A stretch of DNA of 64,000 nucleotides from Pseudomonadota bacterium (GCA_021848465.1 JAJZUP010000002.1:348524-412523); one strand, 5' to 3'. Shown: positions 1-19,966, numbered from the stretch's first letter. Translations and numbers: made by a program. The notes: generated from the sequence alone by a model not told the origin.

Positions 1-443
1 TAGCTAGTCGGTGCAGTATGGTCTCATTCACCCCATGGCACTCACTTCCGCTTAGATGGGCAAAGTGATGCTGCCTGATTTGTCCCTTCCTAGCAATAAG
101 AGGCTCGCCACATTTGACGCAAAGACAGCCACAGGAAGCTCCGCGCGGGACTTCGGAAATGTGAATAAGATTACCGTTGAGTTCGGCGTAAACCGCATTC
201 TGGGATGCATGCATTGTTTAAGTATACGACCAATAGAGGCGAGTGATGGGGATTGAACCGGTCTGCAGGATGTGTCCGGAATTTTGTGTATAGCCGACAA
301 AACTTAATCTATTACTTTCTGTCGGCTATGGCCGAGCTGCTGACCTTCATTTCAGTCATGCTGAATGACTGCTTCTGGCACACAGCAGACTAAATTTGGA
401 ACGCTAGGGACCGACCGCTATGGCCGAGCAGCCGACACTCTAT

Positions 444-1199
444 TCACCTCACCTCTGCCAACTCACTCCACTTTGTCATATACCCCGGACTGACATTCCC
501 CCGCTTCATCTGCCAGCTCTGCCCTACTCCATCGCTGGCCAGCCTGAGTGCACCCCTCCCCATCTTCAGATTCACCTGATCAAGCGTTGCCATGAGCTTT
601 GCATGTGAACTGGATCGCAGTAGGTCAGGCGTAAACAGTTCGCCTTGCACAATTCCAGCGGGGGTAATATCCGACAGCATCACCCCTGCCTTCTGGTATC
701 TGAAACCCTCCCGATAAATCTGTCTCAGGCCGAGCAGAACGGCCTCCACCAGCCTCATGGTGTCATCGGTAGGCTTGGGTAGCCCAATCATCAGTCCGGG
801 GCCGTATTGGGGCTCGTTGTCCTTATGCGGGTTGGTACGGATATAGACATAGGCTGTTGCAGCGACGGATTGCTGGCGCCGGAGCTTTTCTGCGGCACGG
901 CTCATGTAGCTGGATACGGCTTCTTCAAGTTCCGGTAGGCTGGTCACATATCGACCAAAGCTTCTGGAGCTGATGATCTGCTGCTTGGCCGGAGTGATGT
1001 CGGATAGTTCCAGACAGGACTCGCCCCTAAGTTCTCTGACGGTGCGTTCCATGACAACGCCAAATCGGTTGCGTAGGCGGTGACGATCAAAGTCTCTTAG
1101 TTGCCTGACGGTGTGAATACCACCGGCATTGAGATGTGCGCTCAGCTTGCGACCGATGCCCCAGACATCGCCGACTTCGATGTTGTCGGGTAGTGAACG
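444..1199 (-). pseudogene. umuC: 5'-truncated umuC (Y-family DNA polymerase V catalytic subunit); only the C-terminal ~250 codons remain
   Basis: The minus-strand translation reads ...LPDNIEVGDVWGIGRKLSAHLNAGGIHTVRQLRDFDRHRLRNRFGVVMERTVRELRGESCLEL...YQKAGVMLSDI...WQMKRGNVSPGYMTKWSEL. This is colinear with E. coli UmuC from about residue 180 to the C-terminus. The frame is closed by an in-frame stop at 1200-1202, and the N-terminal catalytic half is absent. Confidence 0.85.
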
Positions 1200-1238
1200 T
1201 CAGCTATACTGCAAAAAGTTAATCTTCACTATTTCACA

Positions 1239-4200
1239 ATGTCTAATCGCCCATCATCAAGCGGGGAGCGCGCAGCCGTAATCGGATACTCTGCACAGTA
1301 CCGTATTGCGGCTGAGCTAATCTATTCATCTCTAGTAACCGAAGAGTTGGAGTGGGTAGCCTTAGCTGATCCAGAAGCCGGAAGATTAGATGACATCCAG
1401 ATTGCTACGCCGGGTCGCCTAGATGCTTATCAGGTGAAATGGGGAGAGCAAACTGGCACTCTTTCGTTCAACGATTTATCGAGCGGCAAGGGTGATACAA
1501 CACTAATATCAAGTAATGGCTTGATTGGGCAGCTTGCGGGGGGATGGCATAAATTTAGACAGGCCCATCCTACCCGCCGAGTAGTTGTCCATCTCCTAGC
1601 TCGAGACATAGCATCCGCTTCAACGAAGGCAACCATCCCTCACGATAGCAACACAGTTTCCAAGCCTAATCTTCAGGGATTTCTGACAGATTGCTGGGTA
1701 GATCGAAGTTGGTCTACCCAAGGGCTTGGCGCTTGTCCCACGGGATGGAACCCTGCGCTTACCGCACTGAAAGATGCATCCGGCATAGATGAGGCTGCTT
1801 TCTTGTCTTTCATTCGAGATTGTGAGCTAGAGTTTGGCTATTCCTTGCAAAGCGCATCATTCACTCGCGACGGATTGCGCCAAGCAGAAGACATAGAGAC
1901 GCTCGCTGCCTTCCTCTTCCGCACAGTCGGGGCTGACAAGCGAGAAATTCGAATTGAACGGGACGAGTTGCTGAGACGTTTAGGTTGGGCTGAGCGGTTT
2001 TCTCAGCACTTCACTCACGATTTCAAAATAGACAAGCTTTACCAGCCCATTTCTGCCACGATCAGCGATCTGGAGAATGCTCTGAACAAGCACAAGCGCG
2101 GCTATCTGGCGTTGCTTGGCACACCGGGCTCCGGAAAATCCACAACTCTGACTCATGCCTTGCGCTATCGAAGTGGCTACCGGGTTGTGCGCTATTACTC
2201 TTATGTGCCAGACAGTTTCACCCAAGGGCGAGGCGAAGCGGCGAACTTCTTGCATGACATGGTTCTTGCCCTGAAGTCACTTGGCTTTCATGGCGGTAAG
2301 AGTCAGGCAAAAACATTTGAGGAGCTCCTTGATAAATTCAGTCATCAGTTAGCCGAACTTCATGACTCATGGCTAAGCGATGGAGTGCTTACGCTGATTC
2401 TGGTTGACGGACTCGATCATATCGAGCGAGAACAAAGAACGAAACGAAGCCTGCTGGAGATTCTGCCTCATCCCGATACGCTACCAGAGGGCGTGTTGTT
2501 TATCTTGGGCAGCCAGACTTTGGAGCTTAAGGATTTGCCACCTGCGGTCAAAGCCCAGTTACAGCCAAATTTTGCCCGTGTACTGAACATGCGCCCGCTC
2601 GCACGTTCTCAGGTTTTCGACATGATCGACGAGGCGGAGTTATCAATTCCACTTACTCCAGAGCAAAAGGAACAAGCCTATCGAATATCCGCAGGTCATC
2701 CGTTGGCAACCAGTTATCTGATAAGAATATTGGCGGATGCATCGGAATCATCGGCGATAGATACGATTCTTGCTAACGCAAATCCCTATCAAGGGCATGT
2801 TGATCAAGGTTACGACATCTATTGGCAGGGCATCCAACAAAACACCGCCTTAAGTGAATTGCTGGCATTGCTTGCCCGCACCCGCATTCCATTCAATCCG
2901 TTGGAATTGGTGAGATGGGCGGATGAGGCTACAGCACGAACCCTAGTAAGAGAAGCCAGCTTCTACTTTCAAAAGGACACACCTCACCGCTGGCGATTCT
3001 TTCACAACAGTTTTCGCCAATTCATTCTGAATCGCACTTCGCTGAATCTTTTGGACGAACGTGATGAATCCCGAGACCAGGCGTATCACCGAAGGCTGGC
3101 TAATTTAGCCTCTCAGCATCCTGCGGATAACCCTCAAAGCTGGGAAGCCCTTTATCACCTTGCCTGCGCGGAGGAGTGGGAATCAGCGTTGAAGCTCGCA
3201 ACGCAGGAATATTTTCGCCGTCAATTTTATGCGCTACGCCCACTGGCAGACATCAAGGAAGATATTTCTTTTGCTCTGCGTGCCGCACGCGCAACGCAGG
3301 ATGGCATCGCGATATTTCGTTATCTATTAGTCGAGCATGAGTTGGGAGAGCGGCAACAGGTGCTCGATCAAATGGATATGCCGGAGCTAATTTTTGCGCT
3401 CTACGGCACTGAAGCGGTGCTGAATTATTTGATGGATGGAAGCAACCTCCGTGTTACTGATGAAGTCGGCCTTAAATTTTGCCGCCGTCTGGTTGCCACT
3501 GGCGAAATCAAGGCAGCACGGCTGGTATTTGAAGCAGCAGAGCCACTGGAGTTTTTGAGCGGTGCACAGCCAGTTAAGCAACACGGCCCCGACCAATCAT
3601 TGTTGAAACACTGGGTGCGTTGTGCGCATCACTTTCGCACGCTCCAAGAGATGGAAACTGCCGTTGCTGCACTTCGGACCGAGGCGCCTCGGCATGCGCC
3701 AGATGAGGATGAAGTTGTTGCAACGACGAATCTCCGCGCCCATTTGCGTCAGGTGCTCGCGTCTGTGGTTTCTGACTTTTCCGACACCGACAAATGGGCA
3801 AGCCTGCGAACACTCTCAATCGAACCTGATGAGCAGAAAGCGCTTTGTCAGCAATTAGATTTCAATATCTGCAATCTGCACCCATCACACCCTGAGGCGC
3901 AGGCAGCATTAGAACGCATCCTGACATGGGCGACCAAGGAGATGCTTGAAGACGTAGACAGAGTGCTGGTCGCGGAATTCCTGTTGACTATTCGAGGAGA
4001 TGCAGAGGGAGCAATCCACTGGATCGAGGATTTAGTCCAACCGCCGATCTACGACGGATTATCTTCAGGATGGAAACGATTAGAGCCTTTTGCTTTGCGA
4101 ATCCGCTTGAACCGCCTTCTTGCTTCACTTGGGCAAGCAGTCGATCCGGTCAAGGCTGTGCCAGATTCGGATGATCCACGCAAACATGGAAACGTACTGT

Positions 4201-7200
4201 TTGAGCGGCAGTTGGTCATCATTGCCTCAATCTGGGGCCGCGCGAAAAAGGGAGAAATCATGGCTCCCGATGAAATTATTCGCGTGCTCCATCCCGCGTT
4301 ACACCTCTTTAATCGAGGCCGCCGTGAAACCCAAGATTGGTCGGCCTGGTATCAATTTGCTAGCGCGGCAGAGGACTATTTTAAACTGATGATTCGATCA
4401 GTCGCCGCTCATGGGCAGGACGCAGTGCGTGAACTAAGTCGTGAGTTTGAGCAACAATGGGCACTTGAGAAAACTGCCGAGTACTGGTCTACCAACAGGC
4501 GGCGCGCTATCGCTTTGGCACTTTATCGAAATGGTGATGACCGAGACATATTCATTCGCCGATTGGAAAGGTTGGAGCAAGAAATCGGCGTATGGCATGA
4601 AGTTCACGAACAAGCAGAAGAATATGGGCAGCTCGCCTTGGCTTGGCGCGAAGCCGGGGAAATAGAACGAGGCAAATCACTCGTGCCGCTACTTCTAAAG
4701 GGCTCGTTCGGCATCTATCACCACAAAGACCGCCAATTGCAGCAGTGGGTTGATTTGCTCGCCAAAGCTGCTGCATATCAACCAGACTTAGTAAATGAAG
4801 ATATTGGGCGTTTCGCTAGCGCGCTTGTCGTCTTGGAGCAAGCGGGGCGTGGGCGCGGCACGCAGGATGCCGCTACCGAGTTGTTGGCCTTGGTCATGTC
4901 TGCCTATCCCGGTTATGCGAAAACTTTATTCGATTGGCTGCTGGAACATGGGGGGCTACATTTCAGCAGTGCGGTGAGCGGGCTCCTGCTGGGCGCACTA
5001 CGCCACGAAAGCCCGCCTTTAGAGGCGATCTTTACGGTTACACGCCATTTGTTGATTCCATTTGACTCCTACGTTTACGAACCACTAGCAAAGCAACTTG
5101 CCGCGCGCACCGCACAAAGTGCCAAGCTAGAGATCGTGGAACGTCTGATGTGCGAGTTGACGCAGACGATTCAGGTTAAGGCCTATCCGGGAGACCGTCC
5201 CAGATTATGGAGGGCATTGATCGCGGGTGTACGCGAGGCTGGTCAAGATAGTCTGTTTTTCGAGCAGTTGCTTGCTGAAAATCCTGGCAAGCAAGACAGC
5301 TCAAGTTCCAGCTTGCTCCTGACAGATGGCAGGAAGCTAACTGAGGAAGATGTTTTGGTCTTGGTTAACTCATTTGAGCAGTTAGTTACCTTGATCGAAT
5401 CTATAGAGAAGACCGAGTACTTTCCTTGGCGAAGAGTAATAAAGCCACTGATTGGGCGATTTTCCGCTCAACAGATAAACCGTCTTCTTTCCTTGCTTTC
5501 CCCTCATGGGCTTGACAGCATGGTGCGCAATATGTGCGCATCGAGACTCCACGGCCTTGGTCTCACAAATGAAGCTTTGCACATTTTGGAAGCAGTCTTG
5601 AGCGAGACTACTGCATCAGGCTGGGACATAAGTTGGGACGGTGGCAGCCGTCAGCACGCAATCAAGGCTCTAATCTCCATTGCCCCTGACAAGTGGCGCC
5701 CGCGAGCGCTGGAAACACTCGTTGATGATTACATTTCGGAGTTTCACTACCCCTACAATCTGATCCACAATCTTGAAGAGTTGGCCGAGATACTTTTCGA
5801 GGAGGTGCCATGGGAACGGCTATGGCCGGAAATACGAGAACATATCTATCAGCTCTCGGACTTTTCTTTGGCTGAGGCGCAGGCCCCATCTCCGCATGAA
5901 TCAGACCTTTCGGCCGAAGAAGTCTTGCTGCAAGCCGTAGTGTGGGCGGCGAATCTGCCTATCGACGAAGTGCGCGATCAAGTGCATTGCGCACTTTGTG
6001 ATTTTGTAATTCGTAATGTAGCACCCGCGACCACCAAGGCAGTTATCTCGACACAACTGTCAGGAGAGCAGCCCAAGATAATCCAAGGGCTAGCAGTCTT
6101 GGATACGACTTGGCAATTGGGTTCACCGCTCGCACAAGCCTTTTCTGAGCAGATACTTTCATTTTTAACGGCTCAAGATTTTATCTTGCGATGTATGGCC
6201 GCCGAGCTCGTCGAAGAAATCGGCCTACGCATCGAGCCAGATCAGAATGCAGTAAAGCCTTTACCCATGATTTACAACCTGCATCTGCCATCTTTGGGGA
6301 GTGATGAGCGAGCGGTGCCATTGGATGCAATACGTGCAGACGAATTATACCCGGATTCCGATGATGCCTTGGAAATGGTACGGCCATTTGATGCGGAGTT
6401 GAGGATGCTAAGTCGCGCATCAGAAGTCCCACTGGAGAATTTGTTGCAAAGAACGGCAATACTGATGCGACAGTTAGTCCCTGAGGAACAGTGGAGCAAA
6501 TCGGCGGGAGACAAATTACTGACGTTTCTGAAATCCATTGAAATGCAATTGCCGTACAACCGACTAAGACCGCAAGTTGCATTACGCGCTATTTGCCAAG
6601 TCGTTGCGGAACTTGCAGATGCTGATCGGATAGATATTGAAGCGCAGATGTTCGCCTACAGTCGGATTTACCGTTATGACTGGCGGCTTGCGGGGAAAGA
6701 GCCCGTGACTCGCCCAAATGCTGTTGCAGCCCTGAAAGGTCTTGGACTTTTTCCAAAAAAGGATGAGTGGATAGATGGGCGAGCAGCTGCATTTGAGGCT
6801 TTTTCCACCAGATTGGATACTGGGTATTTGGTGGCAGGCGAGCTGTCTCAGTTTAAGGCATGGGATTGGTCTGTGCCAACTGAGTATCGCTTCTCTATGG
6901 CATGCCATCCTGATTGGCGCCACACAAACGAATTGAGAGGTGCATTCGATTTCTTCCCGTATGAGTCAATCTGGAATGCAAGTGACTATCCTGACCTTTA
7001 TGGTGTAAGAGAATATCCTGCATTGGTTGTTTATGGACATTCACAGCAAGTAGCTATCGGGGGATCGGAATGGCTAGCGTTTAACCCGGTCTTTGCGATC
7101 AGTCTGGGATGGTCACATTCTGAAGATGGCTTATTTCGATGGGTTGATGCTGCAGGCAAGACTATGGCGGAAAGTATCTGGTGGCAGGATGGCCCGATAG

Positions 7201-7391
7201 ATCGTCAGCCTCCACGAAGTAACGAGGTAACAGGAGAAGGTTGGCTGGTGATTGTCTCACCGGAGGCTCAATTATCCATTCTGCAACATTACTCTCCGAT
7301 CTCCTTCATGCGCGCGGTTAAGCGCTGCCTTAAAGATGAAGTTGATAGCTTCAATGACTTTTCTGTTGATACATTGACGTGGCCGAACTGA
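1239..7391 (+). CDS. Giant STAND NTPase with an N-terminal Cap4/DUF4297-like PD-(D/E)xK nuclease domain and a ~1,450-aa C-terminal helical-repeat/sensor region (Avs-like antiviral STAND candidate)
   Basis: Uninterrupted 2,050-codon ORF. N-terminus reads GYSAQYRIAAEL...LDD(51-52)IQI...AYQVK(67)W. Walker A GTPGSGKST is at nt 2118-2144 and Walker B LILVDGLD at nt 2394-2417. A STAND-type GHPLA motif is at nt 2694-2708, and an FFHNSFRQF winged-helix-like motif is present. The rest is long Leu/Ala/Glu-rich helical repeats. The last ~300 aa are Trp/aromatic-rich. Confidence 0.8.
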   Translation: MSNRPSSSGERAAVIGYSAQYRIAAELIYSSLVTEELEWVALADPEAGRLDDIQIATPGRLDAYQVKWGEQTGTLSFNDLSSGKGDTTLISSNGLIGQLAGGWHKFRQAHPTRRVVVHLLARDIASASTKATIPHDSNTVSKPNLQGFLTDCWVDRSWSTQGLGACPTGWNPALTALKDASGIDEAAFLSFIRDCELEFGYSLQSASFTRDGLRQAEDIETLAAFLFRTVGADKREIRIERDELLRRLGWAERFSQHFTHDFKIDKLYQPISATISDLENALNKHKRGYLALLGTPGSGKSTTLTHALRYRSGYRVVRYYSYVPDSFTQGRGEAANFLHDMVLALKSLGFHGGKSQAKTFEELLDKFSHQLAELHDSWLSDGVLTLILVDGLDHIEREQRTKRSLLEILPHPDTLPEGVLFILGSQTLELKDLPPAVKAQLQPNFARVLNMRPLARSQVFDMIDEAELSIPLTPEQKEQAYRISAGHPLATSYLIRILADASESSAIDTILANANPYQGHVDQGYDIYWQGIQQNTALSELLALLARTRIPFNPLELVRWADEATARTLVREASFYFQKDTPHRWRFFHNSFRQFILNRTSLNLLDERDESRDQAYHRRLANLASQHPADNPQSWEALYHLACAEEWESALKLATQEYFRRQFYALRPLADIKEDISFALRAARATQDGIAIFRYLLVEHELGERQQVLDQMDMPELIFALYGTEAVLNYLMDGSNLRVTDEVGLKFCRRLVATGEIKAARLVFEAAEPLEFLSGAQPVKQHGPDQSLLKHWVRCAHHFRTLQEMETAVAALRTEAPRHAPDEDEVVATTNLRAHLRQVLASVVSDFSDTDKWASLRTLSIEPDEQKALCQQLDFNICNLHPSHPEAQAALERILTWATKEMLEDVDRVLVAEFLLTIRGDAEGAIHWIEDLVQPPIYDGLSSGWKRLEPFALRIRLNRLLASLGQAVDPVKAVPDSDDPRKHGNVLFERQLVIIASIWGRAKKGEIMAPDEIIRVLHPALHLFNRGRRETQDWSAWYQFASAAEDYFKLMIRSVAAHGQDAVRELSREFEQQWALEKTAEYWSTNRRRAIALALYRNGDDRDIFIRRLERLEQEIGVWHEVHEQAEEYGQLALAWREAGEIERGKSLVPLLLKGSFGIYHHKDRQLQQWVDLLAKAAAYQPDLVNEDIGRFASALVVLEQAGRGRGTQDAATELLALVMSAYPGYAKTLFDWLLEHGGLHFSSAVSGLLLGALRHESPPLEAIFTVTRHLLIPFDSYVYEPLAKQLAARTAQSAKLEIVERLMCELTQTIQVKAYPGDRPRLWRALIAGVREAGQDSLFFEQLLAENPGKQDSSSSSLLLTDGRKLTEEDVLVLVNSFEQLVTLIESIEKTEYFPWRRVIKPLIGRFSAQQINRLLSLLSPHGLDSMVRNMCASRLHGLGLTNEALHILEAVLSETTASGWDISWDGGSRQHAIKALISIAPDKWRPRALETLVDDYISEFHYPYNLIHNLEELAEILFEEVPWERLWPEIREHIYQLSDFSLAEAQAPSPHESDLSAEEVLLQAVVWAANLPIDEVRDQVHCALCDFVIRNVAPATTKAVISTQLSGEQPKIIQGLAVLDTTWQLGSPLAQAFSEQILSFLTAQDFILRCMAAELVEEIGLRIEPDQNAVKPLPMIYNLHLPSLGSDERAVPLDAIRADELYPDSDDALEMVRPFDAELRMLSRASEVPLENLLQRTAILMRQLVPEEQWSKSAGDKLLTFLKSIEMQLPYNRLRPQVALRAICQVVAELADADRIDIEAQMFAYSRIYRYDWRLAGKEPVTRPNAVAALKGLGLFPKKDEWIDGRAAAFEAFSTRLDTGYLVAGELSQFKAWDWSVPTEYRFSMACHPDWRHTNELRGAFDFFPYESIWNASDYPDLYGVREYPALVVYGHSQQVAIGGSEWLAFNPVFAISLGWSHSEDGLFRWVDAAGKTMAESIWWQDGPIDRQPPRSNEVTGEGWLVIVSPEAQLSILQHYSPISFMRAVKRCLKDEVDSFNDFSVDTLTWPN

Positions 7392-7517
7392 TTTAGACTA
7401 AACTAGATTAGAGTTCGCCACAGAAACCGGTTTACTATCCAGTTCAAGAATCGGGTGTCTCAGCAGCAAAGAAATCCCGTTTTCACAAAATTCCAGACAC
7501 CCTCACGCCCGAAACAT

Positions 7518-8432
7518 TCAATTGTGCTGCGGCGCAGCCCGGGGCAAAGAGGAAGGGGGGGCCGTCCGACCTAAAGTGTTTGTTAACGAACCTTTCGATG
7601 CGACAACAAACTCACTCGCCGGAAGAACAAGCCGAACCCCTCCAACTTCAAGTACAGAATTTGTTCCTATGCCCTGAAATAGAATTGCCGCATCTTTGTA
7701 AACGGCTCCATCCTTCGTAATCGGTATTTCTGGAATAACACCATTGCTTTCGAGAAATTTTGCATACCTCTCAGAAATCTGGACGACCACCGCATCGTTT
7801 CGAACTCCAATTAATCGCATTGCTTGATCGAGTATGCTTCCCTGTGACTTCGTGGCTATCAAGGGAATGAGTATTGCTACTAATGCCAAGCTGATCTTTA
7901 CCTGCCTCTCTAACCCCTTATTACCAGCAATCACCTTGGGCGGCTCTGTATGCCACAAACCGTAGATAACTCCCATCAGTAGCGCCCCTTCTAGCAAGCC
8001 AACACCTACAGCGAAATCGTCAGCCATTTTCGCAACGAAGATAAACAGCATAAGCAATCCAAACACGATTACGCCCAGCTTGTCCAAGCCGAGCTCCGGA
8101 AAACTTACGAGACATCGTAGTTTCTCTGGATTATTTTGCCTTGCGATGTTTATTACGAAAACTGCCGTTTTTTGCATATATCGCAAAACTGGGGAGAGTG
8201 TGAGTCCAGCCGAGAAGAAAGCTAGAACCACCAGTGTATAGGTAAATGAAACAGCGAGGCTGGCGGCTATGAATAGAAGACTGTCACCAATTGTAACTCC
8301 TGTCGGATAGTAATCGATTCTTCCGCAGTATACGATGATCGTTAATACCCCGATAGATATCCCGAGCTGCAAGGTCAATTTGGCGATGGCTGAGATTACT
8401 TCCACCGGCTTTTCCAAATCTTCAAGCTTCAT
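7518..8432 (-). CDS. Polytopic membrane protein (about 5-6 TM segments) with a ~100-aa soluble C-terminal domain; no recognisable family
   Basis: 304-codon ORF with hydrophobic stretches such as LGISIGVLTIIVYCG, LLFIAASLAVSFTYTLVVLAFF, GVIVFGLLMLFIFVA, VGVGLLEGALLMGVIYGLW and ISLALVAILIPLIA. It lies 27 nt downstream of, and co-directional with, the 148-aa membrane ORF. Confidence 0.7.
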   Translation of the reverse strand: MKLEDLEKPVEVISAIAKLTLQLGISIGVLTIIVYCGRIDYYPTGVTIGDSLLFIAASLAVSFTYTLVVLAFFSAGLTLSPVLRYMQKTAVFVINIARQNNPEKLRCLVSFPELGLDKLGVIVFGLLMLFIFVAKMADDFAVGVGLLEGALLMGVIYGLWHTEPPKVIAGNKGLERQVKISLALVAILIPLIATKSQGSILDQAMRLIGVRNDAVVVQISERYAKFLESNGVIPEIPITKDGAVYKDAAILFQGIGTNSVLEVGGVRLVLPASEFVVASKGSLTNTLGRTAPPSSLPRAAPQHN

Positions 8433-8459
8433 CTCAGCCCTTTTCGCTTACGTTTAAGG

Positions 8460-8906
8460 TCAGGGGCGCTCCGCTTGCGGAGCGTCCCGTTTGTGCGCAG
8501 TGTTAGAGGTTACAACGTTAGTTTGGGGGCGAAGTTGCCTCTCTGTTTGAAGGAGTAACAACGCTTGAGAAACTGTAATAACAGAAAACATATATATCAT
8601 CGCGAGTGGCGCGAACAGCCATGCCCTTTTCGTACCCTTGACCGGCCGGATAAGTTTTTCAACTCCGTGGTGTATGTTCCATGCGAACAGTCCAGATGCT
8701 GCTAGCAAAACCAGAACTGCGACAATCACATTGATTGTTGATCCAAGCTGCATCTCTGAGCGATATTTAAATACAGCACCTCCCGCGATAGTCAGGCTAA
8801 TGCAGATAAGTAGATTACGAATGTTATCAAATACGTGTTTAATGAGTGCGTCTTGAGCCTCGGCTTTTAGCCGTTTTTCCTCTTGTGTCAAATCGTCTGG
8901 CATCAA
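8460..8906 (-). CDS. Small membrane protein (about 3 TM); no recognisable family
   Basis: 148-codon ORF with a charged N-terminus (DLTQEEKRLKAEAQD). Hydrophobic segments LLICISLTIAGGAVF, INVIVAVLVLLAASGLFAW and WLFAPLAMIYMFSVITV follow. It appears operonic with 7518-8432. Confidence 0.65.
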   Translation of the reverse strand: MMPDDLTQEEKRLKAEAQDALIKHVFDNIRNLLICISLTIAGGAVFKYRSEMQLGSTINVIVAVLVLLAASGLFAWNIHHGVEKLIRPVKGTKRAWLFAPLAMIYMFSVITVSQALLLLQTERQLRPQTNVVTSNTAHKRDAPQAERP

Positions 8907-9034
8907 TACCCCATAGCGTATAAAACCCGTTGCTAGCTATCCCTCTCAAATATGAGGTTGTGCCTCAGGTTACAGAAAAACTCATGAACCCACGCATCAT
9001 TAACAAATGAGCCATGAATCGAAGCAATACAACA

Positions 9035-9700
9035 TTAGTCTTTATTCAATCTCGCTCCATAATGCCAGCAAATCTTGTCAAACACTCGCTGATGAAACCA
9101 ATCTTTAGAAATTAGTTTTTTTAATTCTTCATCATCGATATTGTTTGCGTAGCTATATTTTTTTACCTCAATGAGTCTATCGCAAGCTGTTTTTATTTCT
9201 TGCTGTTTTTGGCTAAAGGCACTCTGCCAACAATCGTAATAACTCGCATAATTTCTTAAAGTGTTCTGACATTTTTTTTGAAGATATTCCTTCGCATATT
9301 GATCAAAAATCGGAATCCCTCCTTCATGTTCATAGAATTTCAGCCAGAGAAACTTCGATGCCGCAGATAAAGGAATAGAGCGCGTCCCATTGCGCCTATT
9401 CGAACTTATGCTACTAGCAAAATCAGGAACTAACTTTTTTATTTCTCTATTCTGTATATCCACCTTGTTGAGTTCAGATAAAACATTCGAAAATCTAACA
9501 GCCCCTTTTCCGGCGAAATTGCGAGCTACACCATAAGCTGAGGCAAATTTGTGCAATGTGTCTAATTGATCTTGTTTGTTATTGGAACTTAAACCATCCA
9601 CATATTGCTTATCACCCTTTTCCCGAATCCATTCGTTTAAATAATACAAAGCGAAATAATCAAATGACAGCCGACTTTCTTCAGGTTGCTGGATCAACAT
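9035..9700 (-). CDS. Hypothetical soluble protein (221 aa), AT-rich codon usage
   Basis: Clean ORF in a strongly AT-rich segment. The only motif I half-recognise is IPLSAASKFLWLKFYEHEGGIPIFDQY. It resembles the ASK(L/F)L...P(I/V)xD signature of OGG-fold/HhH-like hypothetical proteins, with low certainty. Confidence 0.6.
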   Translation of the reverse strand: MLIQQPEESRLSFDYFALYYLNEWIREKGDKQYVDGLSSNNKQDQLDTLHKFASAYGVARNFAGKGAVRFSNVLSELNKVDIQNREIKKLVPDFASSISSNRRNGTRSIPLSAASKFLWLKFYEHEGGIPIFDQYAKEYLQKKCQNTLRNYASYYDCWQSAFSQKQQEIKTACDRLIEVKKYSYANNIDDEELKKLISKDWFHQRVFDKICWHYGARLNKD

Positions 9701-10065: not shown

Positions 10066-10794
10066 ATGGCCAGTTATCACTTAAGCATCAAGAGCGGAAA
10101 AAAAGGAACAGCTGTCGAACATGCAAATTACATTGCACGCGAAGGCAAATTTAGAAAAGGTCAGAAGCGAGAAGACTTATTGGTATTAGCGCATGGAAAT
10201 TTGCCTGAATGGGCTAACAACAATCCTGCAGTCTTGTGGAAAATGGCGGACAAGCATGAGAGAAAGAATGGTGCCGCGTATCGTGAGTTTGAGATGGCTC
10301 TCCCCCATGAGCTCACGCTGGAGCAAAATCTGGAGCTTTTCAATGATTTTATTCGGCATGAAGTTGGGAACAAGCCATATCAATTCGCAATTCATGCACC
10401 TATGGCTTCTCTGGGAAAGGTGGTTCAGACTCATGGCCACCTAATGGTTTCAGATCGAATTCCTGACGATATTATCCGGCTGCCGGAGCAGCATTTCCGC
10501 CGATACAATTCGGCTCATCCTGAGCTAGGTGGATGCAAGAAAGATAGCGGGGGCAAGGATCGTGCTGCTATGCGAGAACACGCGATTTCGATTCGCTCTA
10601 GCTTCGCAGACTATCAAAATAAATACTTGGCTAAATATGGTCACGCCGCAAGAGTAGATCATCGCAGCAATCGAGATCGAGGCTTAACTTCTGAGCCTGA
10701 ACAACATTTGGGTAGTTCTGCTATTAGCAAAATGACATCGGAGGAAAAAGAGCAGTACAAAGCGAAGCGGTCGAGTAAGAACCAGCATTCCTGA
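10066..10794 (+). CDS. mobA: MobA/MobL (MobQ-family) relaxase, relaxase domain only (242 aa)
   Basis: MASYHLSIKSGKKGTAVEHANYIAREGKF...EFEMALPHELTLEQ...HGHLMVSDR...AARVDHRS is colinear with the N-terminal relaxase domain of RSF1010 MobA (MAIYHLTAKTG...ADYIQREGKY...EVEFALPVELT...HCHLMISER...DARIDHRT). The primase or extension domain is absent. Confidence 0.9.
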   Translation: MASYHLSIKSGKKGTAVEHANYIAREGKFRKGQKREDLLVLAHGNLPEWANNNPAVLWKMADKHERKNGAAYREFEMALPHELTLEQNLELFNDFIRHEVGNKPYQFAIHAPMASLGKVVQTHGHLMVSDRIPDDIIRLPEQHFRRYNSAHPELGGCKKDSGGKDRAAMREHAISIRSSFADYQNKYLAKYGHAARVDHRSNRDRGLTSEPEQHLGSSAISKMTSEEKEQYKAKRSSKNQHS

Positions 10795-11031: not shown

Positions 11032-11808
11032 TTATAGACTTTCTTCATTTTTTGCGGTATCAGCAGTTGTTGCAGAGTAAGCAGCCTTTATTTCAGCATC
11101 TGAGTTTATCCATCTTCTCAATAAATTGGGCAGCTCCTCGGATTTAAGCTTAATGTCCGGGTTGTCGAATAAATTTTTTTCAAGGTCTTTTGAAATTCCA
11201 TTAATTGCCTCAGTAATATTTCCCCATCCAGATGCAGGGCGTTTTGATTCTAGTAGTTTTTTAACTTCATCTTTAAATGGCCCATATTGGGATGCGGCTT
11301 TCGCATGCCCACCTAATTTGGCTCTCTCTTGAAGTTTGGCAGCATCCATTTCGAGACTGCCTTTTGCAGTCTCAACATATTTCTTGGCGTTTTCAAGATG
11401 CGCCCAAGCCTTTTCTTCACGACCATATTTAAATGCGCTAAATGATTCAATGCAAAAAGCCATGGAAAGGCGGATCGGAGTAAAGAGTCGAGTTTTATTA
11501 TCTCGACTTGCAAAATGAAAGAATGCTTCACTCTCTAATTCCTCAGCACTCATTCCCGTATTCATTTCGTCAAGAACCATTTTTGAAAAATCTTTGAAAT
11601 TCTCGTTGGCAACCACATGATCGTTCGCTTTGGTCTTTCTTCTCGTTCCAACCTTTTTAGCTCCCAAATGATTATGATAATTATCAAAAGCTATTCTTAT
11701 ATCCATATTTAGAGCCTTGATGGCATCAATCAAACTTAATTCACTCCCTGATTTTGCAGTTCCCAACCCTTGATGCTCTTTTTCTGCACATTTATTGGAC
11801 ACATTCAT
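11032..11808 (-). CDS. Hypothetical protein (258 aa), Lys/Glu-rich, predicted helical
   Basis: Long ORF in an AT-rich region with no motif I can assign. The overlapping plus-strand ORFs look like noise. Confidence 0.6.
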   Translation of the reverse strand: MNVSNKCAEKEHQGLGTAKSGSELSLIDAIKALNMDIRIAFDNYHNHLGAKKVGTRRKTKANDHVVANENFKDFSKMVLDEMNTGMSAEELESEAFFHFASRDNKTRLFTPIRLSMAFCIESFSAFKYGREEKAWAHLENAKKYVETAKGSLEMDAAKLQERAKLGGHAKAASQYGPFKDEVKKLLESKRPASGWGNITEAINGISKDLEKNLFDNPDIKLKSEELPNLLRRWINSDAEIKAAYSATTADTAKNEESL

Positions 11809-11988
11809 TGTTCATATCCCTTTCCGTAATCATCGCCGGGAACCCCAAAAACTAATTCTCTTGCCACGTATTGCCGAAAAATACAATACGTCTGCTTTGT
11901 GTAAAAAAATGATTTTAGCAGCCCAAGTTTCACCCGATTCGCAAATCAATAGTATCCACCAGTCAATTCTGACCTAGTGGAGAAGCAT

Positions 11989-12831
11989 ATGAATCATCGT
12001 CGTAGTTTTTTAGCAATATTGGCTATATGTATCACATCAACGGCTATGGCTATGACTGCGGCGGCAGCCATAGATCGAGGCGGCACTACCATAGATCAAG
12101 CTCTTTTAGTGGCGCTTTCGCTAGTCATCTGCGCAGGCACGAATTTTATTCCTGCAATATCAAAGCATCCTCTGGCTTGGTTGATCTGGGGAGGCTGTTT
12201 GTTAGCTACGATTTTTGGACACGTGACCTTCTTTACTCACGCTGAAATGCGTGCGGGAGATGTGCGAGTACAAAGTTCTCATCTTGTGCAGGGGGCTGAA
12301 CATCAGATAAAGGCCGTGAATGACGCTTTAGCATCAATAAAGTCTCGTCCAACTGCGGTTATTGCCGCTGATCTAGCGGTAACTGAAGACAATCGGCTTC
12401 GCCATGCCTTGAGGATAGAACTAGGAGAAGCAAAGCGCGCAGAGGTGCTCCATGACGAACTGCTGCGACTATCCGCGACTGTCACGACTGCAAGTGTAAT
12501 GAACGCGACCGACCCCGTGACTACGTTACTTATGACAGTAATTCGTAGTAATCCTGCCAGTATTTCTCTCGGCATCAGTCTTGGATTTTCCATCTTGCTG
12601 GAATTGCTGGGGGCATTTCTATGGTTTCAGGCATTACAGCGACCAGACGGCGTTACTACTCCTGTCGCTAGCAAGTCACAAACAAATAACCAACTTACAG
12701 ATATCCGCGAAGCAATCGCGTCTGGGAAATGTCTTCCTACGGTAGCAGGCATTCGCAAATATTTATCTTGCGGACAAAGCAACGCAATGAAATTACATCG
12801 CGAATTAAATAATCCACTACAGGAGAATTAA
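11989..12831 (+). CDS. Membrane protein with a possible C-terminal HTH-like segment
   Basis: ATG at 11989 is preceded by GGAG 6 nt upstream. The N-terminus has hydrophobic segments (FLAILAICITSTAMAMTAAAA, LLVALSLVICAGTNFI, LIWGGCLLATIFGHVTFF). A further TM pair lies near residue 200. The C-terminus reads LTDIREAIASGKCLPTVAGIRKYLSCGQSNAMKLHREL. Confidence 0.65.
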   Translation: MNHRRSFLAILAICITSTAMAMTAAAAIDRGGTTIDQALLVALSLVICAGTNFIPAISKHPLAWLIWGGCLLATIFGHVTFFTHAEMRAGDVRVQSSHLVQGAEHQIKAVNDALASIKSRPTAVIAADLAVTEDNRLRHALRIELGEAKRAEVLHDELLRLSATVTTASVMNATDPVTTLLMTVIRSNPASISLGISLGFSILLELLGAFLWFQALQRPDGVTTPVASKSQTNNQLTDIREAIASGKCLPTVAGIRKYLSCGQSNAMKLHRELNNPLQEN

Positions 12832-12834
12832 CAA

Positions 12835-13989
12835 ATGAATAGCAAATCCAGATATGCGCAGGAAGCTCTACTTGCAAACAATGTCGGCTACAGCATAGAC
12901 CGCTTCGGTATGGTGAAATTACATATTACAAGTGAATACGATCTCATAGGGCAAATCAGTAATTGTGAAAAGCTAGTAAAAGATCTGGTCAAAGCGCCGG
13001 GAGATTTAGCTGTCGTTAAGGCAGACAAAATTAGGAGGCGAAAGTACATCCACACTAATCGGCTTGGAAATAATTTTCTTCAAGCCATGAGGTCGCAAGT
13101 CCAAGAAATACGGTTACATTTTGCGAGTCACAAATTCAATCCGTATTTCGAGCTATTTGTTACGCATGTAAAAGCCAGACATCTGGAAGAGGTCGTAAAT
13201 TATCTGAATTTCTTACCGAATGATGAGGAAGTCTATAAGTGGTGTGACATCATCAATAGTTGCGCAAGAAGTATTGTTGATGAAGCCGAAAGCGCAGTAT
13301 TTAAGAAAAAGGTGAATGAATTCCATAATTCAGCCAATAAAAATGAACGTGAATTACGTCAGCACTTTAAAAAGCTTGCAGATGGCTGCGATAGCGTTCC
13401 CCTCGAAGTTTCAAGGTTTGATGTAACTTTCCGCAAGCCAATAGATGTTCCAGCTATCGATATAAGAATGTCATACGAGGATGTAAAAAGCTACTGGGCA
13501 AATTTCATCAAATATTTAAACAAGAATCTTCCATCGGGTTGCTTTATTGGCTATGCATGGCGATTAACCTCAACTCTCGACAGTTCATTTATTTACCACT
13601 TTGTCACATTTGTTCACCCTGAGAAGGTTCCAGACAACGTGATTTTCGACCAGGCAATTAGCATCGCATGGGATGCAGTTACCACCGGCAAAGGATTGGT
13701 TTACGACTGTAGGCGGATTAACGTGCCACTCGATCACCCATCCCCATTCCGTTTTAAATCATGTGGAATCGGCATGACAAATGATCCATTGGTTCGTGAA
13801 GGGCTTGAGTATGCAGCTTTTTACATGACGCAACTCGATTACCACATGAAATACTCCCCGTCAGGAAACGGACGAGCCTTGGGGAAAAGTGTATTGCCCA
13901 CGCTAAAGCAAAGCGAGCCTGATAGACCGAAACCAAAGAAAAAATTGAAGGAGACTGTCACAGGGAGCAATTCGGCATCTTTGATCTAA
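12835..13989 (+). CDS. Island protein of uncertain function; weak resemblance to Inovirus-Gp2-type island or replication-associated proteins
   Basis: 384-codon ORF starting 4 nt after the previous stop. The segment IGYAWRLTSTLDSSFIYHFVTFVHPEK recalls the (Y)xWKLEYG...HYH(l)(l)(f) core of that family. I cannot verify this assignment here. Confidence 0.5.
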   Translation: MNSKSRYAQEALLANNVGYSIDRFGMVKLHITSEYDLIGQISNCEKLVKDLVKAPGDLAVVKADKIRRRKYIHTNRLGNNFLQAMRSQVQEIRLHFASHKFNPYFELFVTHVKARHLEEVVNYLNFLPNDEEVYKWCDIINSCARSIVDEAESAVFKKKVNEFHNSANKNERELRQHFKKLADGCDSVPLEVSRFDVTFRKPIDVPAIDIRMSYEDVKSYWANFIKYLNKNLPSGCFIGYAWRLTSTLDSSFIYHFVTFVHPEKVPDNVIFDQAISIAWDAVTTGKGLVYDCRRINVPLDHPSPFRFKSCGIGMTNDPLVREGLEYAAFYMTQLDYHMKYSPSGNGRALGKSVLPTLKQSEPDRPKPKKKLKETVTGSNSASLI

Positions 13990-14364: not shown

Positions 14365-15423
14365 ATGTTCGGTATGGGAAGAAGGCCAAGTGTTAATCTA
14401 AATTTACCTCCACGGATGCGCGCTCGTGTTCAAAAAAGTGGGGTGACCTATTATTACTACGACACAGGTGGAAAGCCGCGCCGTGAGATTCCGCTCGGCA
14501 ATGATTACATTGCGGCTGTTCGCAAGTGGTCTGAATTGGAAGCAGATAACTCTTGCAGCCCGACCAAGTTAATTACCTTCAAGGATGTATCGAATCGCTA
14601 CCTTAAAGAAGTGCTTCCACTAAAAGCGCCTCGAACCCAGAAAGATAATCTGATCGAGCTGGAATGGTTGCTCAAATTTTTTAACGATCCACCAGCTCCA
14701 CTTGAAGCGATTAAGCCTGAAAACATCCGAGCATATCTCGACTGGCGAGGGAAAACGGCAAAGGTTCGAGCTAACCGGGAGAAGGCGTTATTCAGTCATA
14801 TTTGGAATATGGCACGAGCTTGGGGAATTACCGACAAAGCCAATCCCTGTGCAGGGATTAAAGGCTTCACTGAAACTGGCCGCGATATATACGTTGAAGA
14901 TGCAATCCTGAAGGCAGTGTGGAATGCTGCCGATGTGCCATTACGTGATGCCATTGATATGGCCTATCTCACGGGACAACGTCCGTCTGACGTTCTTGGA
15001 ATGCGCGTTACCGATATTAGGGATGGCCTTCTCCAAGTTCAACAGGACAAGACCAACAAGAAATTGCGAATCGAAATTAGCGGTCAGCTTGGACTATTGC
15101 TGAAACGCATCGACGAGAGAAAAAAAACCTACAAGGTACATAGTTTGTCCCTCATTTGCTCAGAGAGTGGCCGCCCGCTGGGGCGAGAGGCTTTGAAGTG
15201 CCGATTTGAAAAAGCGCGCAGTGCAGCGGCCAAGGAGCATCCAGATATTGCTGAAGCTATCAAAGCATTCCAATTTCGTGATCTTCGTGCCAAGGCTGGC
15301 ACAGACAAAGCGGATGCTGAAGGAATGCGGGAAGCCCAAATGCAACTTGGTCATGGCAGCATGAAAATGACTGAGCATTATGTGCGAGGCAGGCTGGGTG
15401 ACAAGGTGACGCCGACAAAATAA
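14365..15423 (+). CDS. int: Tyrosine site-specific recombinase (phage-type integrase)
   Basis: The N-terminal arm-type region reads LPPRMRARVQKSGVTYYYYD. The catalytic region reads AYLTGQRPSDVL...FRDLRAKAGT...LGHGSMKMTEHYVR, giving R...HxxR...Y-type motifs. A strong GGAGG RBS is present. Confidence 0.92.
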   Translation: MFGMGRRPSVNLNLPPRMRARVQKSGVTYYYYDTGGKPRREIPLGNDYIAAVRKWSELEADNSCSPTKLITFKDVSNRYLKEVLPLKAPRTQKDNLIELEWLLKFFNDPPAPLEAIKPENIRAYLDWRGKTAKVRANREKALFSHIWNMARAWGITDKANPCAGIKGFTETGRDIYVEDAILKAVWNAADVPLRDAIDMAYLTGQRPSDVLGMRVTDIRDGLLQVQQDKTNKKLRIEISGQLGLLLKRIDERKKTYKVHSLSLICSESGRPLGREALKCRFEKARSAAAKEHPDIAEAIKAFQFRDLRAKAGTDKADAEGMREAQMQLGHGSMKMTEHYVRGRLGDKVTPTK

Positions 15424-15619: not shown

Positions 15620-17041
15620 ATGCAGGCTTACTGCTCTTGGTGCTACAAGAAAACGAATCACAAGCTAGTCGAACACAATTATTTGCGACGAAATGTTTAC
15701 AAGTGTAGCGGTTGTCAAAATTACACCTTGGAATGCAGAGCTATTGGATGCAATCACCATACTAAAGGGCATCCAAACGATGAACTTTCTAGAACTGCCG
15801 GGTCAGTAATCGATAAATTAAAACACAACTGGCATGCGGAGTTCTGTGCCGAACATGATGGAACTATCGCATCTTTTGATCGACTGAATCAGCATTTAGA
15901 GGATATTAGAAACTTCAATATTTTGTTTGAAAATCGCAAATTCAATATGGTAAAGACAACCACATCCATCGGAACGGCCATCGGTGGCGTAGCTGTATTC
16001 GCAGCAACCGCAGGGACGGCAGCTCCGGCCTTTGCAGCCGCATTAGGGAATGTAGGTCTACTTGGTGCAGCATCCACTGGTACGGCAATTTCAACCCTTA
16101 GCGGAGCCGCGCTGACAAGTGCATCCTTGGCAGCCATTGGTGGTGGTACCGTCGCTTCCGGAGTAATCTTCATTTCTGCAGCAGGGGCTGCCGTGGGGGG
16201 AGTTCTTGGTGGCGTGGTATCGAATCAGTATGTTGGAGCAATCAAGAACTTTGACATCAAGCAATACAACGAGGGAGAGGGAATTTCTGTCATCTTCGTC
16301 AATGGCTTTCTAAATGAAGACAATGACGATCTCGAAGATTGGAGGGCGGGAGCTCGGTTGATGTTTAAGGATAACCCGTGGTATTTAACCACATGGGAAT
16401 CGAAGAAGAAGGCCGATATTGGTTCGCTTGTTGGGGGCAATATGTCCAAGACTGCTCTTAAGGCGTACATGAAAAAACTCGCCAGCCGAGCGACAAAGAA
16501 AGCAGGTAGCAAGATAAGTCCATTGACATGGGCTGCGTTCGCTGCGGATCTTGCTGGTAATGACTGGCATTCAGCCATGAGCAAGGCCGCTATGACGGGA
16601 ATACTGTTAGCAGATATTATTGCTAGAACACCCAGTAAAAAATATATCCTAGTCGGACACTCACTTGGCGCACGAGTTATTTACTACGCTTTAGAGGTTC
16701 TTTCATCACGGACAACCAAACCACAGATTCAAGATGCAATTCTTTTGGGGGGCGCGATTGGCGCGCAAGACGAAGCCGGATGGGCTAGCGCGGCTAAGGC
16801 TGTGTCAGGAAAAATTTACAATTGCCTATCAAGCAAAGACGACGTACTCAACTATGCATATCAAGGTGCAAGTGCTCTTACAAGCATACCAATTGGAGTG
16901 ACACCAATCGCAACAATTAGTCCAAAAATTGAGAATTGGGATTGCTCTGAGTTCATAGATAGTCACATGGCATGGAAACCAAAGTTCGGAGAGGTATTAA
17001 CCGCAATTGACTATAAAATTCAGAAAGGCCGACGTGCTTAA
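15620..17041 (+). CDS. Zn-ribbon plus Gly/Ala-rich membrane segment plus DUF726-like alpha/beta-hydrolase (GxSxG)
   Basis: N-terminal Cys clusters are CSWCYKK...CSGCQNYTLECRAIGC. A ~90-aa Gly/Ala-rich hydrophobic region follows (GTAIGGVAVFAATAGTAAPAFAAALGNVGLLGAAS...). The C-terminal hydrolase core has a nucleophile elbow LVGHSLGARVIYY, then SSKDDVL and DSHMAW. Confidence 0.75.
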   Translation: MQAYCSWCYKKTNHKLVEHNYLRRNVYKCSGCQNYTLECRAIGCNHHTKGHPNDELSRTAGSVIDKLKHNWHAEFCAEHDGTIASFDRLNQHLEDIRNFNILFENRKFNMVKTTTSIGTAIGGVAVFAATAGTAAPAFAAALGNVGLLGAASTGTAISTLSGAALTSASLAAIGGGTVASGVIFISAAGAAVGGVLGGVVSNQYVGAIKNFDIKQYNEGEGISVIFVNGFLNEDNDDLEDWRAGARLMFKDNPWYLTTWESKKKADIGSLVGGNMSKTALKAYMKKLASRATKKAGSKISPLTWAAFAADLAGNDWHSAMSKAAMTGILLADIIARTPSKKYILVGHSLGARVIYYALEVLSSRTTKPQIQDAILLGGAIGAQDEAGWASAAKAVSGKIYNCLSSKDDVLNYAYQGASALTSIPIGVTPIATISPKIENWDCSEFIDSHMAWKPKFGEVLTAIDYKIQKGRRA

Positions 17042-17277
17042 GAGTCTGTGGCAATTCAACATATTTTCAACTCAATAATAACGTTGTCGCTAAACTAGAT
17101 TCGTCTCTCGTAAGAACCATAATTGCTGGCTTTCCCAATGCTCCAAATTGGCAATCAATGCGCTGTTTAGAATTGGTACATTCACCTCGTGCGAACAAGC
17201 GTAATACTGTGATGTGTTGATGCCGCAATCTGGTTTCTCAGATTATCAAGAGCAGTGGCGTAAACACCCAGAGTGGA

Positions 17278-17294
17278 GTAGGATTGAATCCTAC
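17278..17294. promoter_or_regulatory. Palindrome GTAGGATTGAATCCTAC upstream of parD (candidate ParD operator)
   Basis: 6-bp arms GTAGGA/TCCTAC sit 23 nt upstream of the parD ATG. ParD-type RHH antitoxins typically autoregulate through such palindromes. Confidence 0.3.
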
Positions 17295-17316
17295 CATTGT
17301 ATTTATGGAGATTTTT

Positions 17317-17595
17317 ATGCGCACGACTCAACAATTCAGCATCACTTTGCCAAATGAGATGGCGAATGCGGTGAAATCAAAAGTCGAAGCTGGCGAGTAT
17401 GCCACTGAGAGCGAAGTTATCCGGGATGGCCTTCGCGCTCTTATGGCTCGTGACAGGGCTGTAGAATCTTGGCTTCATGAACAAGTTGGCCCTGCATTCG
17501 ATCGAATTCAATCTGACCCTTCGCGTGCCATCACAGCCAATCAAATGCGAGCAAGACTTGCTGCTGAGCACAAAACGACTACAACCAAAGCATGA
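17317..17595 (+). CDS. parD: ParD-family (RHH/CopG-like) antitoxin
   Basis: MRTTQQFSITLPNEMANAVKSKVEAGEYATESEVIRDGLRALMARD is a typical ParD N-terminus. GGAG lies 6 nt upstream. The gene overlaps the toxin gene in a 4-nt ATGA. Confidence 0.85.
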   Translation: MRTTQQFSITLPNEMANAVKSKVEAGEYATESEVIRDGLRALMARDRAVESWLHEQVGPAFDRIQSDPSRAITANQMRARLAAEHKTTTTKA

Positions 17596-17924: not shown

Positions 17925-18026
17925 ATATCACCCCCACGTGTATAATGGCTCCCAAGGCAGAAATTTTGAATGAATTGCGGAGCAAAAACAGGCCGCAAAC
18001 CCTTGTGGTTATAGGAAATGCATATT

Positions 18027-18074: not shown

Positions 18075-18079
18075 GATAG

Positions 18080-18114
18080 AAAGGCCTGTAGCAATACAGG
18101 CCTTTATTCTTTTG
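18080..18114 (+). terminator. Rho-independent terminator (native tRNA terminator)
   Basis: An 11-bp stem AAAGGCCTGTA/TACAGGCCTTT with GCAA loop is followed by ATTCTTTTG. Confidence 0.8.
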
Positions 18115-19958: not shown

Positions 19959-19966
19959 CGGCCCGT

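Follow-up and report, generated by a model that had tools for sequence, protein, structure and literature searches.

What does the giant gene beside a broken umuC in a Pseudomonadota bacterium encode, and does it belong to a described kind of antiphage protein? The question was addressed in a window of 64,000 nt, the whole stretch of DNA that was analysed (GCA_021848465.1 JAJZUP010000002.1:348524-412523), in which positions are counted from the first letter. The gene occupies 1239-7391 on the + strand. A sequence-only reading had described it as a single-gene nuclease-STAND-repeat protein resembling the antiviral STAND (Avs) proteins (STAND, signal transduction ATPases with numerous domains), had taken it for a defence gene and had left open the Avs clade to which it might belong. 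Our results placed the protein in the Avs1/Avs3 structural lineage. Sequence comparison indicated that it is a relative of Avs1b with a predicted DNA-cutting domain in place of the protease, and that it represents a known Avs kind. It is probable that the gene encodes a single-protein Avs pattern-recognition receptor of this lineage, which would sense a phage protein, oligomerise through its STAND module and activate its nuclease. A defence phenotype is very likely on grounds of homology. The reading as an Avs-type defence gene was well founded because a predicted Cap4 fold, an Avs1b-related STAND module and a solo gene were found together.

The open reading frame (ORF) starts with ATG and encodes 2,050 aa without an internal stop, arranged as a Cap4-like nuclease, a STAND nucleoside triphosphatase (NTPase), a helical sensor and a C-terminal beta-rich sensor domain. 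A frame of 2,050 codons cannot have arisen by chance. It was intact and uninterrupted, as had been claimed, and over 100 homologues of 2,040-2,070 aa could be aligned with the protein along its whole length. Alignment A1 was composed of 44 family members with a mean column identity of 51%. Invariant residues were present in every part of the protein, and the named motifs were invariant or nearly so. All motif coordinates given earlier were exact when recomputed, and GYSAQYRIAAEL was located at 1284-1319 (+) in the N-terminal nuclease region. AlphaFold2 (AF2) models covered aa 1-272 and aa 1600-2050.

Domain architecture of the giant protein

The N-terminus had been proposed to be a PD-(D/E)xK nuclease of the Cap4/DUF4297 type. 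Pfam, including its Cap4 nuclease/DUF4297 model, gave no match to aa 1-276, even at E ≤ 10. Despite this silence, the structural evidence was in agreement with the proposal. The model of aa 1-272 (1239-2054, +) was built from 27 sequences and reached a predicted local distance difference test score (pLDDT) of 84.6 and a predicted TM-score (pTM) of 0.80. The top Foldseek match in the PDB was SeAvs3 (8dgc_A, E 1.3e-6). It was followed by CBASS Cap4 (7yib, E 3.2e-5), Lamassu LmuA (9nxx_D, E 8.9e-5), HamA (8zue_A, E 1.1e-4) and HerA-DUF4297 (9c1m_G, E 7.5e-4), and then by restriction enzymes and Hjc resolvases with marginal scores. Structural similarity to PD-(D/E)xK nucleases was thus found for the predicted fold, with SeAvs3, Cap4, LmuA and HamA among the matches.

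The putative active site was located by alignment. A profile of the N-terminal region gave a weak match among the PDB sequences (E 0.36) to E. coli HamA/AbpA (8ZUE), which aligned exactly on the G-ER-A-GY-Q...AA, DDI and QVK motifs. In this alignment D52 (1392-1394), Q65 (1431-1433) and K67 (1437-1439), which lie within 1389-1439 (+), corresponded to HamA chain residues 72, 85 and 87. These are the native D45, Q58 and K60, given a 27-residue offset in the deposited chain. In the Cap4 domain of HamA, D45A or K60A abolishes nuclease activity. D52, Q65 and K67 were invariant in the 44 sequences, and D51 was likewise invariant. The sequence-only reading had placed the site at D51-D52 and K67. K67 was retained, and D52 rather than D51 was taken as the catalytic aspartate because of the alignment to the HamA active site. 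Both the fold and the D...QxK catalytic motif of Cap4/DUF4297 were therefore present in the giant protein. The fold matches and the invariant, HamA-aligned triad supported the nuclease prediction.

The STAND NTPase module followed at aa 274-640 (2058-3158, +). Walker A was found as GTPGSGKST (2118-2144), in which G294, P296, G297, G299, K300, S301 and T302 were invariant. Walker B, LILVDGLD (2394-2417), contained invariant D390, G391, L392, D393 and H394. The GxP-type motif GHPLA (2694-2708; G486, P488 and L489 invariant) aligned with GHPLYL of Avs1b, and FFHNSFRQF (2997-3023; F587, F588, H589, N590, S591 and F592 invariant) aligned with (I)YHSSF. All four motifs lie on the + strand, and H589 would be the winged-helix histidine of STAND proteins. 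The PADLOC Avs1b model matched aa 277-766 at E 1e-21 over model positions 212-693 of 1924, approximately 25% of its length. Pfam gave only weak P-loop models on the whole protein; these and the Avs1b models were the sole family-level matches. PADLOC, NCBIfam and hhalign consistently indicated that the P-loop centre is of the STAND type and related to Avs1b.

A long and mostly helical sensor was assigned to aa 641-1863 (3159-6827, +). A plasmid match led to a genuine avs1a-avs1b-avs1c operon in Priestia aryabhattai pB2.1 (locus L007). The Avs1b of this operon scored 1118.6 bits on the PADLOC model over positions 10-1921, and the giant family matched it by hhalign with a probability of 99.6. An alignment of 34 canonical Avs1b proteins (A7) was then used for profile-profile comparison with A1. 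Residues 274-2027 aligned with Avs1b 209-1925 with a probability of 100% and E 2.4e-43 over 1,609 columns. The N-terminal 273 aa had no counterpart in the Avs1b profile by hhalign.

Eight independent segments were run by hhalign to exclude that the NTPase alone carried this long alignment. In-register matches were obtained for segments 274-640 (Avs1b 217-571, E 1.8e-34) and 641-800 (582-705, E 5e-11), followed by 1401-1600 (1376-1541, E 3e-4) and 1001-1200 (973-1136, E 2.7e-4). Segments 1201-1400 (1200-1311, E 0.12), 1601-1850 (1645-1671, E 0.3) and 1851-2050 (1813-1921, E 0.09) were also in register. Only segment 801-1000 fell out of register (1485-1587, E 0.35). The best match therefore lay at the collinear Avs1b position in 7/8 segments, and chance placement would not give such a register. 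The in-register segments and the long alignment together indicated that homology to Avs1b begins at the NTPase and runs through to the C-terminus, and that a predicted Cap4-type nuclease has taken the place of the trypsin-like protease.

The earlier description of about 1,450 aa of helical repeats was borne out in part. Helices were modelled by AF2 at aa 1600-1855, and for the remainder a helical structure is suggested by composition and by homology to Avs1b. No Pfam tetratricopeptide repeat (TPR) model matched the giant protein, either as a whole or in four segments at E ≤ 10.

The last part of the protein is rich in aromatic residues, as had been noted. In aa 1751-2050, Trp accounted for 4.7% and F+W+Y for 14.0%, whereas the remainder of the protein had about 2% and 6-9.5%; for Trp the binomial p was 0.017. 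The AF2 model of aa 1600-2050 (pLDDT 89.4, pTM 0.84) showed helices to about residue 1855 and a beta-rich part at about 1864-2048. A Trp-rich domain rich in beta-strands was therefore assigned to aa 1864-2050 (6828-7388, +). In Foldseek against the PDB, only the terminase-bound SeAvs3 chains 8dgc_A/B were significant, with E 9e-7 and a probability of 1.0 over about 497 aligned columns. A match at E 0.05 came next, and neither EcAvs2 (9O4E) nor SeAvs7 was among the matches. A profile of the last 216 residues collected 812 clusters at 50% identity, in all of which the domain formed the very end of the protein. Neither PADLOC, run on 27 segments of the C-terminus, nor C-terminal searches of the PDB sequences gave a match. 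A deeper C-terminal profile of 129 sequences matched Avs1b in the same register at E 0.02-0.04, and the weak C-terminal hhalign match was used as in-register support only.

This module had been regarded as the part most likely to be novel. That view was abandoned, since the module was kept in all 812 clusters, had an SeAvs3-like predicted fold, lay in the Avs1b register and corresponded to a published description. A beta-strand-rich "C-terminal sensor" is common to SeAvs3 and EcAvs2, and in both it binds one and the same surface on the ATPase domain of terminase (Evans et al. 2026, PMC13601566). The aromatic-rich module is probably this known element. It was best read in this way because SeAvs3 was the sole significant fold match and because the element has been described for Avs2 and Avs3.

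The giant protein thus combined the parts of a broadly defined Avs protein. A STAND NTPase with Walker A, Walker B, the GxP motif and the presumed winged-helix histidine was found. The N-terminal effector domain had a Cap4-type nuclease fold by prediction with D52, Q65 and K67 intact. About 1,400 aa followed the NTPase, compared with the at least 400 aa expected of a C-terminal sensor.

Family, novelty and genomic setting

A search of 5.8 billion proteins gave 870 matches, and the best 120 of the 870 were nearly all full length. Among the matches listed, homologues with 78-86% identity came from Gallionellaceae metagenome bins (Sideroxyarcus, Gallionella). Homologues were also found in Methylomonas (53%), in Pseudomonas and on a Nitrosococcus halophilus plasmid (45%), and in Vibrio parahaemolyticus, Klebsiella, Providencia, Pseudoalteromonas and E. 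coli (about 39%). Remoter full-length relatives with about 30% identity were carried by Rhizobium, Agrobacterium and Sinorhizobium plasmids. Family members occurred in E. coli, Klebsiella and Vibrio as well as in many environmental Proteobacteria, and plasmid-borne ones were seen in Nitrosococcus, Vibrio cholerae and Rhizobium. Accessions that represent the family include WP_064323944.1 from Klebsiella, WP_013028141.1 from Nitrosococcus, WP_157770203.1 and WP_028305187.1. Shorter matches of 1,486-1,897 aa were rejected as alternative architectures, since they were N-terminally cut ORFs of the same protein. The gene was absent by tblastn from 50,697 phage records. Megablast gave nothing for a homologue gene against complete E. 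coli genomes and nothing for window positions 1-9000 against plasmids.

The family showed a uniform architecture and was always encoded by a solo gene, on varied mobile islands and plasmids. Its neighbours at homologous loci included integrases, AlpA, ParB/DUF3987, toxin-antitoxin pairs and other defence-type genes. In Methylomonas koyamae (locus L004), a gene for a 1,616-aa protein with helicase domains AAA_11, AAA_12, AAA_30 and MTES_1575 and a weak nSTAND3 match was observed at 17115-21965, 3 kb downstream of the homologue; it resembles another defence-type gene. DNA similarity to the loci of the 78% homologues ended at the ends of the coding sequence. The neighbours of the giant gene were not common to homologous loci, and neither Avs1a nor Avs1c was detected by NCBIfam or PADLOC among the neighbouring ORFs or at the homologous loci examined. 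The single-gene status claimed earlier was thereby upheld.

Homologues were annotated as "ATP-binding", "NACHT domain-containing" or "hypothetical". Searches of the PDB sequences with the full-length protein and with the whole-family profile gave only the weak HamA match and P-loop noise. On profile matching, the family escapes naming by Pfam, NCBIfam release 20 and PADLOC 2.0. Since these hidden Markov model (HMM) libraries miss the family, defence inventories built on them will undercount it, including in clinical Enterobacteriaceae and Vibrio.

The novelty is limited. For Avs proteins, this architecture, kind of effector and sensor scaffold are already established, as is modular effector exchange. 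What is new is a widespread lineage, an effector-swapped solo relative of Avs1b that escapes Pfam, NCBIfam and PADLOC. A 2026 STAND census describes searches seeded with Cap4 that yielded 198 defence-associated clades and 684 sensor clusters (Lee et al., PMC13581612). The census very probably already contains the giant family. It is rather doubtful that the family is a distinct Avs family, missed by current HMMs, whose sensor detects a phage component unlike the targets of Avs1-3 or recognises terminase anew. The significance of the result is that a widespread giant gene, now annotated only generically, was placed inside the terminase-sensing Avs1/Avs3 lineage. It provides a further example of effector exchange, from protease to nuclease, on a conserved sensor scaffold and introduces no new principle.

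The giant gene starts 40 nt past the break of a umuC remnant. The remnant (444-1199, -), the 3' part of a umuC-like gene, corresponds to residues 173-422 of E. coli UmuC and was recognised by Pfam IMS_C and DUF4113, tblastn and frame analysis. The 5' half of umuC and any umuD were absent from the whole window. A promoter-like site, TTGTCG-16-TATACT (1183-1210, +), straddles the end of the remnant 29 nt upstream of the ATG; one such site was found against 0.4 expected, which is weak evidence. The idea that the island had simply inserted into umuC, leaving the other half beyond its far end, was rejected, since the 5' half was absent from the 64 kb and no direct or inverted repeats were found to link the junction with the 17-19 kb region.

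Genes for mobility lay downstream. Three ORFs without a family match separated the giant gene from a gene for a 242-aa MobA/MobL (MobQ-like) relaxase domain protein (10066-10794, +; Pfam E 7.5e-27; NCBIfam MobQ 70 bits, cutoff 200). A tyrosine recombinase/integrase was encoded at 14365-15423 (+; Pfam Phage_integrase E 1.4e-18). Beside it, a DUF726 alpha/beta-hydrolase gene (15620-17041, +) gave a partial PADLOC PDC-M09A match at aa 103-190 (E 3.6e-12). A parD-parE toxin-antitoxin pair (17284-17924, +) was located near the right edge of the low-GC region, before a chromosomal HDOD gene at 19107. Six ORFs of 304, 148, 221, 258, 284 and 384 aa (7518-9700 on the - strand and 11032-13989) flank the relaxase gene and had no credible Pfam, NCBIfam or PADLOC match; the 221-aa ORF gave sub-threshold matches only. 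The downstream 304-aa and 148-aa ORFs were rejected as conserved partners, since they showed no similarity to same-sized neighbours at the locus of a 78% homologue.

The sequence-only reading had called the gene the main cargo of a mobilizable island. The low-GC stretch had 38-57% GC, compared with 58-62% at 19-64 kb, where ordinary chromosomal genes were found (murJ, argD/F/G, rho, obg, proB, mfd, comEC). An identical contig in the European Nucleotide Archive (ENA), k141_316381 (L001), extends 8.7 kb to the left of the window and carries CoiA_N, DUF2779, WYL and GmrSD_N (765 aa) genes beside the umuC remnant. These defence-type or DNA-handling genes indicated that the low-GC island runs past the window and that the giant gene is not its sole cargo. 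No att-like repeats, tRNA or Rfam element marking the island ends was found in scans of the window. The gene is thus one of several cargo genes of a composite island, at least 27 kb long, that also carries genes for mobilisation and integration. The low GC over at least 27 kb, the MobQ-like relaxase, the recombinase and parDE agreed with the earlier description, which was borne out only in part, as no island ends were found and other cargo genes were present.

Two other regions of the window were observed. A second low-GC patch at 44000-48000 (46.8% at 46-48 kb against about 60%) lies between a TetR regulator and mfd. It carries a NERD-domain protein gene at 45400-46329 (weak PglW/MkoA matches) and a 330-aa ORF (weak PDC-M54B match), and may be another small defence islet. 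At 39919-41521 (+), adjacent MbnB/TglH/ChrH-family (DUF692) and DUF2063 genes were found, a pair typical of systems that modify precursors of ribosomally synthesised and post-translationally modified peptides (RiPPs).

Proposed mechanism and rival explanations

A mechanism was modelled on SeAvs3 and SeAvs7 (PMC13581612, PMC13601566). The resting protein would be an inactive monomer, as are other STAND proteins. The large C-terminal sensor, with its helical and beta-rich parts, would bind a conserved phage protein. By analogy with Avs1-3 the large terminase subunit is the leading candidate for this ligand, with chances that we consider even. Binding would cause the ATP-bound STAND module (K300, D390/D393) to oligomerise, probably into a tetramer. 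Oligomerisation would join the Cap4-type domains (D52/Q65/K67), which would then cleave double-stranded DNA non-specifically. As a result, the infected cell would be killed or arrested ahead of phage release (abortive infection). For the giant protein itself, we infer the ligand identity, the oligomeric state, the nuclease activity and its specificity, and the defence phenotype.

Several results weighed against the placement and the proposed ligand. The NCBIfam Avs1b model NF041810 matched aa 278-913 over model positions 213-839 of 1931 at E 1.3e-20, with a score of 72 bits against a cutoff of 1500. Sequence identity to Avs1b was only about 15%. The C-terminal domain alone matched the Avs1b C-terminus at a non-significant E of 0.02-0.17, so ligand conservation was not secured. 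The Foldseek TM-scores to SeAvs3 were moderate (0.45-0.49, query-normalised), and the aligned SeAvs3 range was not reported by the tool. At the HMMER level, neither phmmer nor three family profiles, each run on all PDB sequences, showed similarity to SeAvs3 8DGC, which was likewise not reached by sequence from canonical Avs1b or from the IncHI2 relative described below. The many distinct sensor families listed in PMC13581612 indicate that likeness in scaffold does not fix the phage protein that a sensor binds. No experiment on any family member was found in the literature.

Because the sensor is very diverged, the main rival is that the protein is the same Avs-type STAND nuclease with a sensor for another phage protein (portal, capsid, tail or replication) or for a non-protein cue. 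The low identity to Avs1b in the sensor, segment 801-1000 without an in-register Avs1b match and the C-terminal domain that is not significantly Avs1b-like by sequence all point in this direction. The literature also shows many Avs families with distinct targets, and the trigger of Avs22-24 is still not known. However, the C-terminal 451 aa had no significant structural match other than the terminase sensor SeAvs3, and the sensor was collinear with Avs1b, which belongs to a terminase-sensing family (PMC13601566). In addition, the surface of the terminase ATPase is bound in both Avs2 and Avs3 by the C-terminal beta-rich sensor (PMC13601566). A different ligand is unlikely on this evidence.

Another explanation is that the gene is not primarily antiphage and serves as a weapon of a mobile element against competing plasmids or elements, or as a module for addiction or stabilisation of the island. 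Mobile islands or plasmids were the carriers of the family in every case, remoter relatives were borne by IncHI2 plasmids, no phage or prophage carrier was found in the tblastn search of phage records, and a relaxase gene and parDE lie nearby in the window. However, defence genes typically ride mobile elements, and both ends of the protein best matched characterised antiphage proteins. The homologous Avs1b operon protects Bacillus from phage SBSphiJ, and no antitoxin-like cognate partner was conserved. This explanation is therefore highly improbable. It is also hardly credible that the gene is a decaying or inactive copy that has been carried passively since an insertion that truncated umuC. 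The start so close to the truncated umuC, the lack of a clear Shine-Dalgarno sequence and the weak promoter evidence would fit such a copy. In contrast, the 2,050-codon frame was intact with 100% coverage against homologues, and all catalytic and NTPase motifs were intact. An identical copy was present in an independent ENA assembly record, and the 78-86% relatives were full length. An Avs receptor of the Avs1/Avs3 lineage thus remained the preferred reading.

Comparison with known systems

A remote full-length relative is WP_072643907.1 (2,021 aa, L008), which is carried by IncHI2 plasmids of Salmonella, E. coli, Klebsiella, Enterobacter and Citrobacter. It had the same architecture from end to end (hhalign E 2e-131, columns 7-2043, 24% identity) and, as in the case of the giant protein, gave only a partial Avs1b match in PADLOC. 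It differed in forming a separate subfamily, since its tblastn match was confined to aa 5-876, with 30% identity. On pX1-88, one of the IncHI2 plasmids (L008 3563-6626), genes for a DEAD/DEAH helicase and a 292-aa hypothetical protein were observed to precede it on the same strand.

The Cap4-type domains of CBASS Cap4 (7YIB), Lamassu LmuA (9NXX), type I-B Hachiman HamA (8ZUE) and HerA-DUF4297 (9C1M) showed the same fold as the model (E 3e-5 to 7.5e-4) and the D...QxK pattern. However, they act with SAVED, SMC-like, helicase or HerA partners and have no STAND sensor. SeAvs7 is described in PMC13581612 as a Cap4 nuclease with a STAND module and a bilobed TPR sensor, which senses the major capsid protein with EF-Tu. 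It resembled the giant protein in having a Cap4 effector before the STAND module, and its Walker A lysine is K292, compared with K300. In contrast, its length is estimated at about 1,500 aa from a one-copy complex of about 250 kDa, so its sensor would be much shorter, and its target is another one. The same source states that, once activated, SeAvs3 and SeAvs7 form tetramers of their Cap4 domains.

SeAvs3 (PDB 8DGC) is the terminase sensor of Salmonella enterica. It is likewise encoded by one gene and unites a Cap4-type nuclease, a STAND module and a large sensor in about 2,000 aa. Among PDB folds it matched the N-terminal 272 aa best and was the sole significant match for the C-terminal 451 aa. 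The Cap4-like effector and the C-terminal sensor fold of Avs3 were thus found in the models of the giant protein, and similarity to Avs3 at the sequence level was not. Terminase is sensed by Avs1-3, and a structural resemblance of Avs1 to Avs3 is predicted (PMC13601566).

The AVAST type 1 operon differs from the giant gene in its organisation, since it includes Avs1a, a hydrolase with the metallo-beta-lactamase (MBL) fold, and Avs1c, neither of which is encoded near the giant gene. The score of at least 1500 bits with near-full coverage of the Avs1b equivalog was not reached (72 bits), and an S1/trypsin-like protease and adjacent Avs1a/Avs1c were not found; the homologous NTPase and sensor were. 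Avs1b itself (NF041810, PDLC02159) had a STAND NTPase and a whole C-terminal sensor that were homologous and collinear with those of the giant protein. The GHPL and (F/Y)H(N/S)SF motifs were common to both, and their lengths were similar (about 1,940 aa in Avs1b and 2,050 aa here). The difference lay in the effector, which is a trypsin-like protease at aa 1-208 in Avs1b and a predicted Cap4-type nuclease at aa 1-273 in the giant protein.

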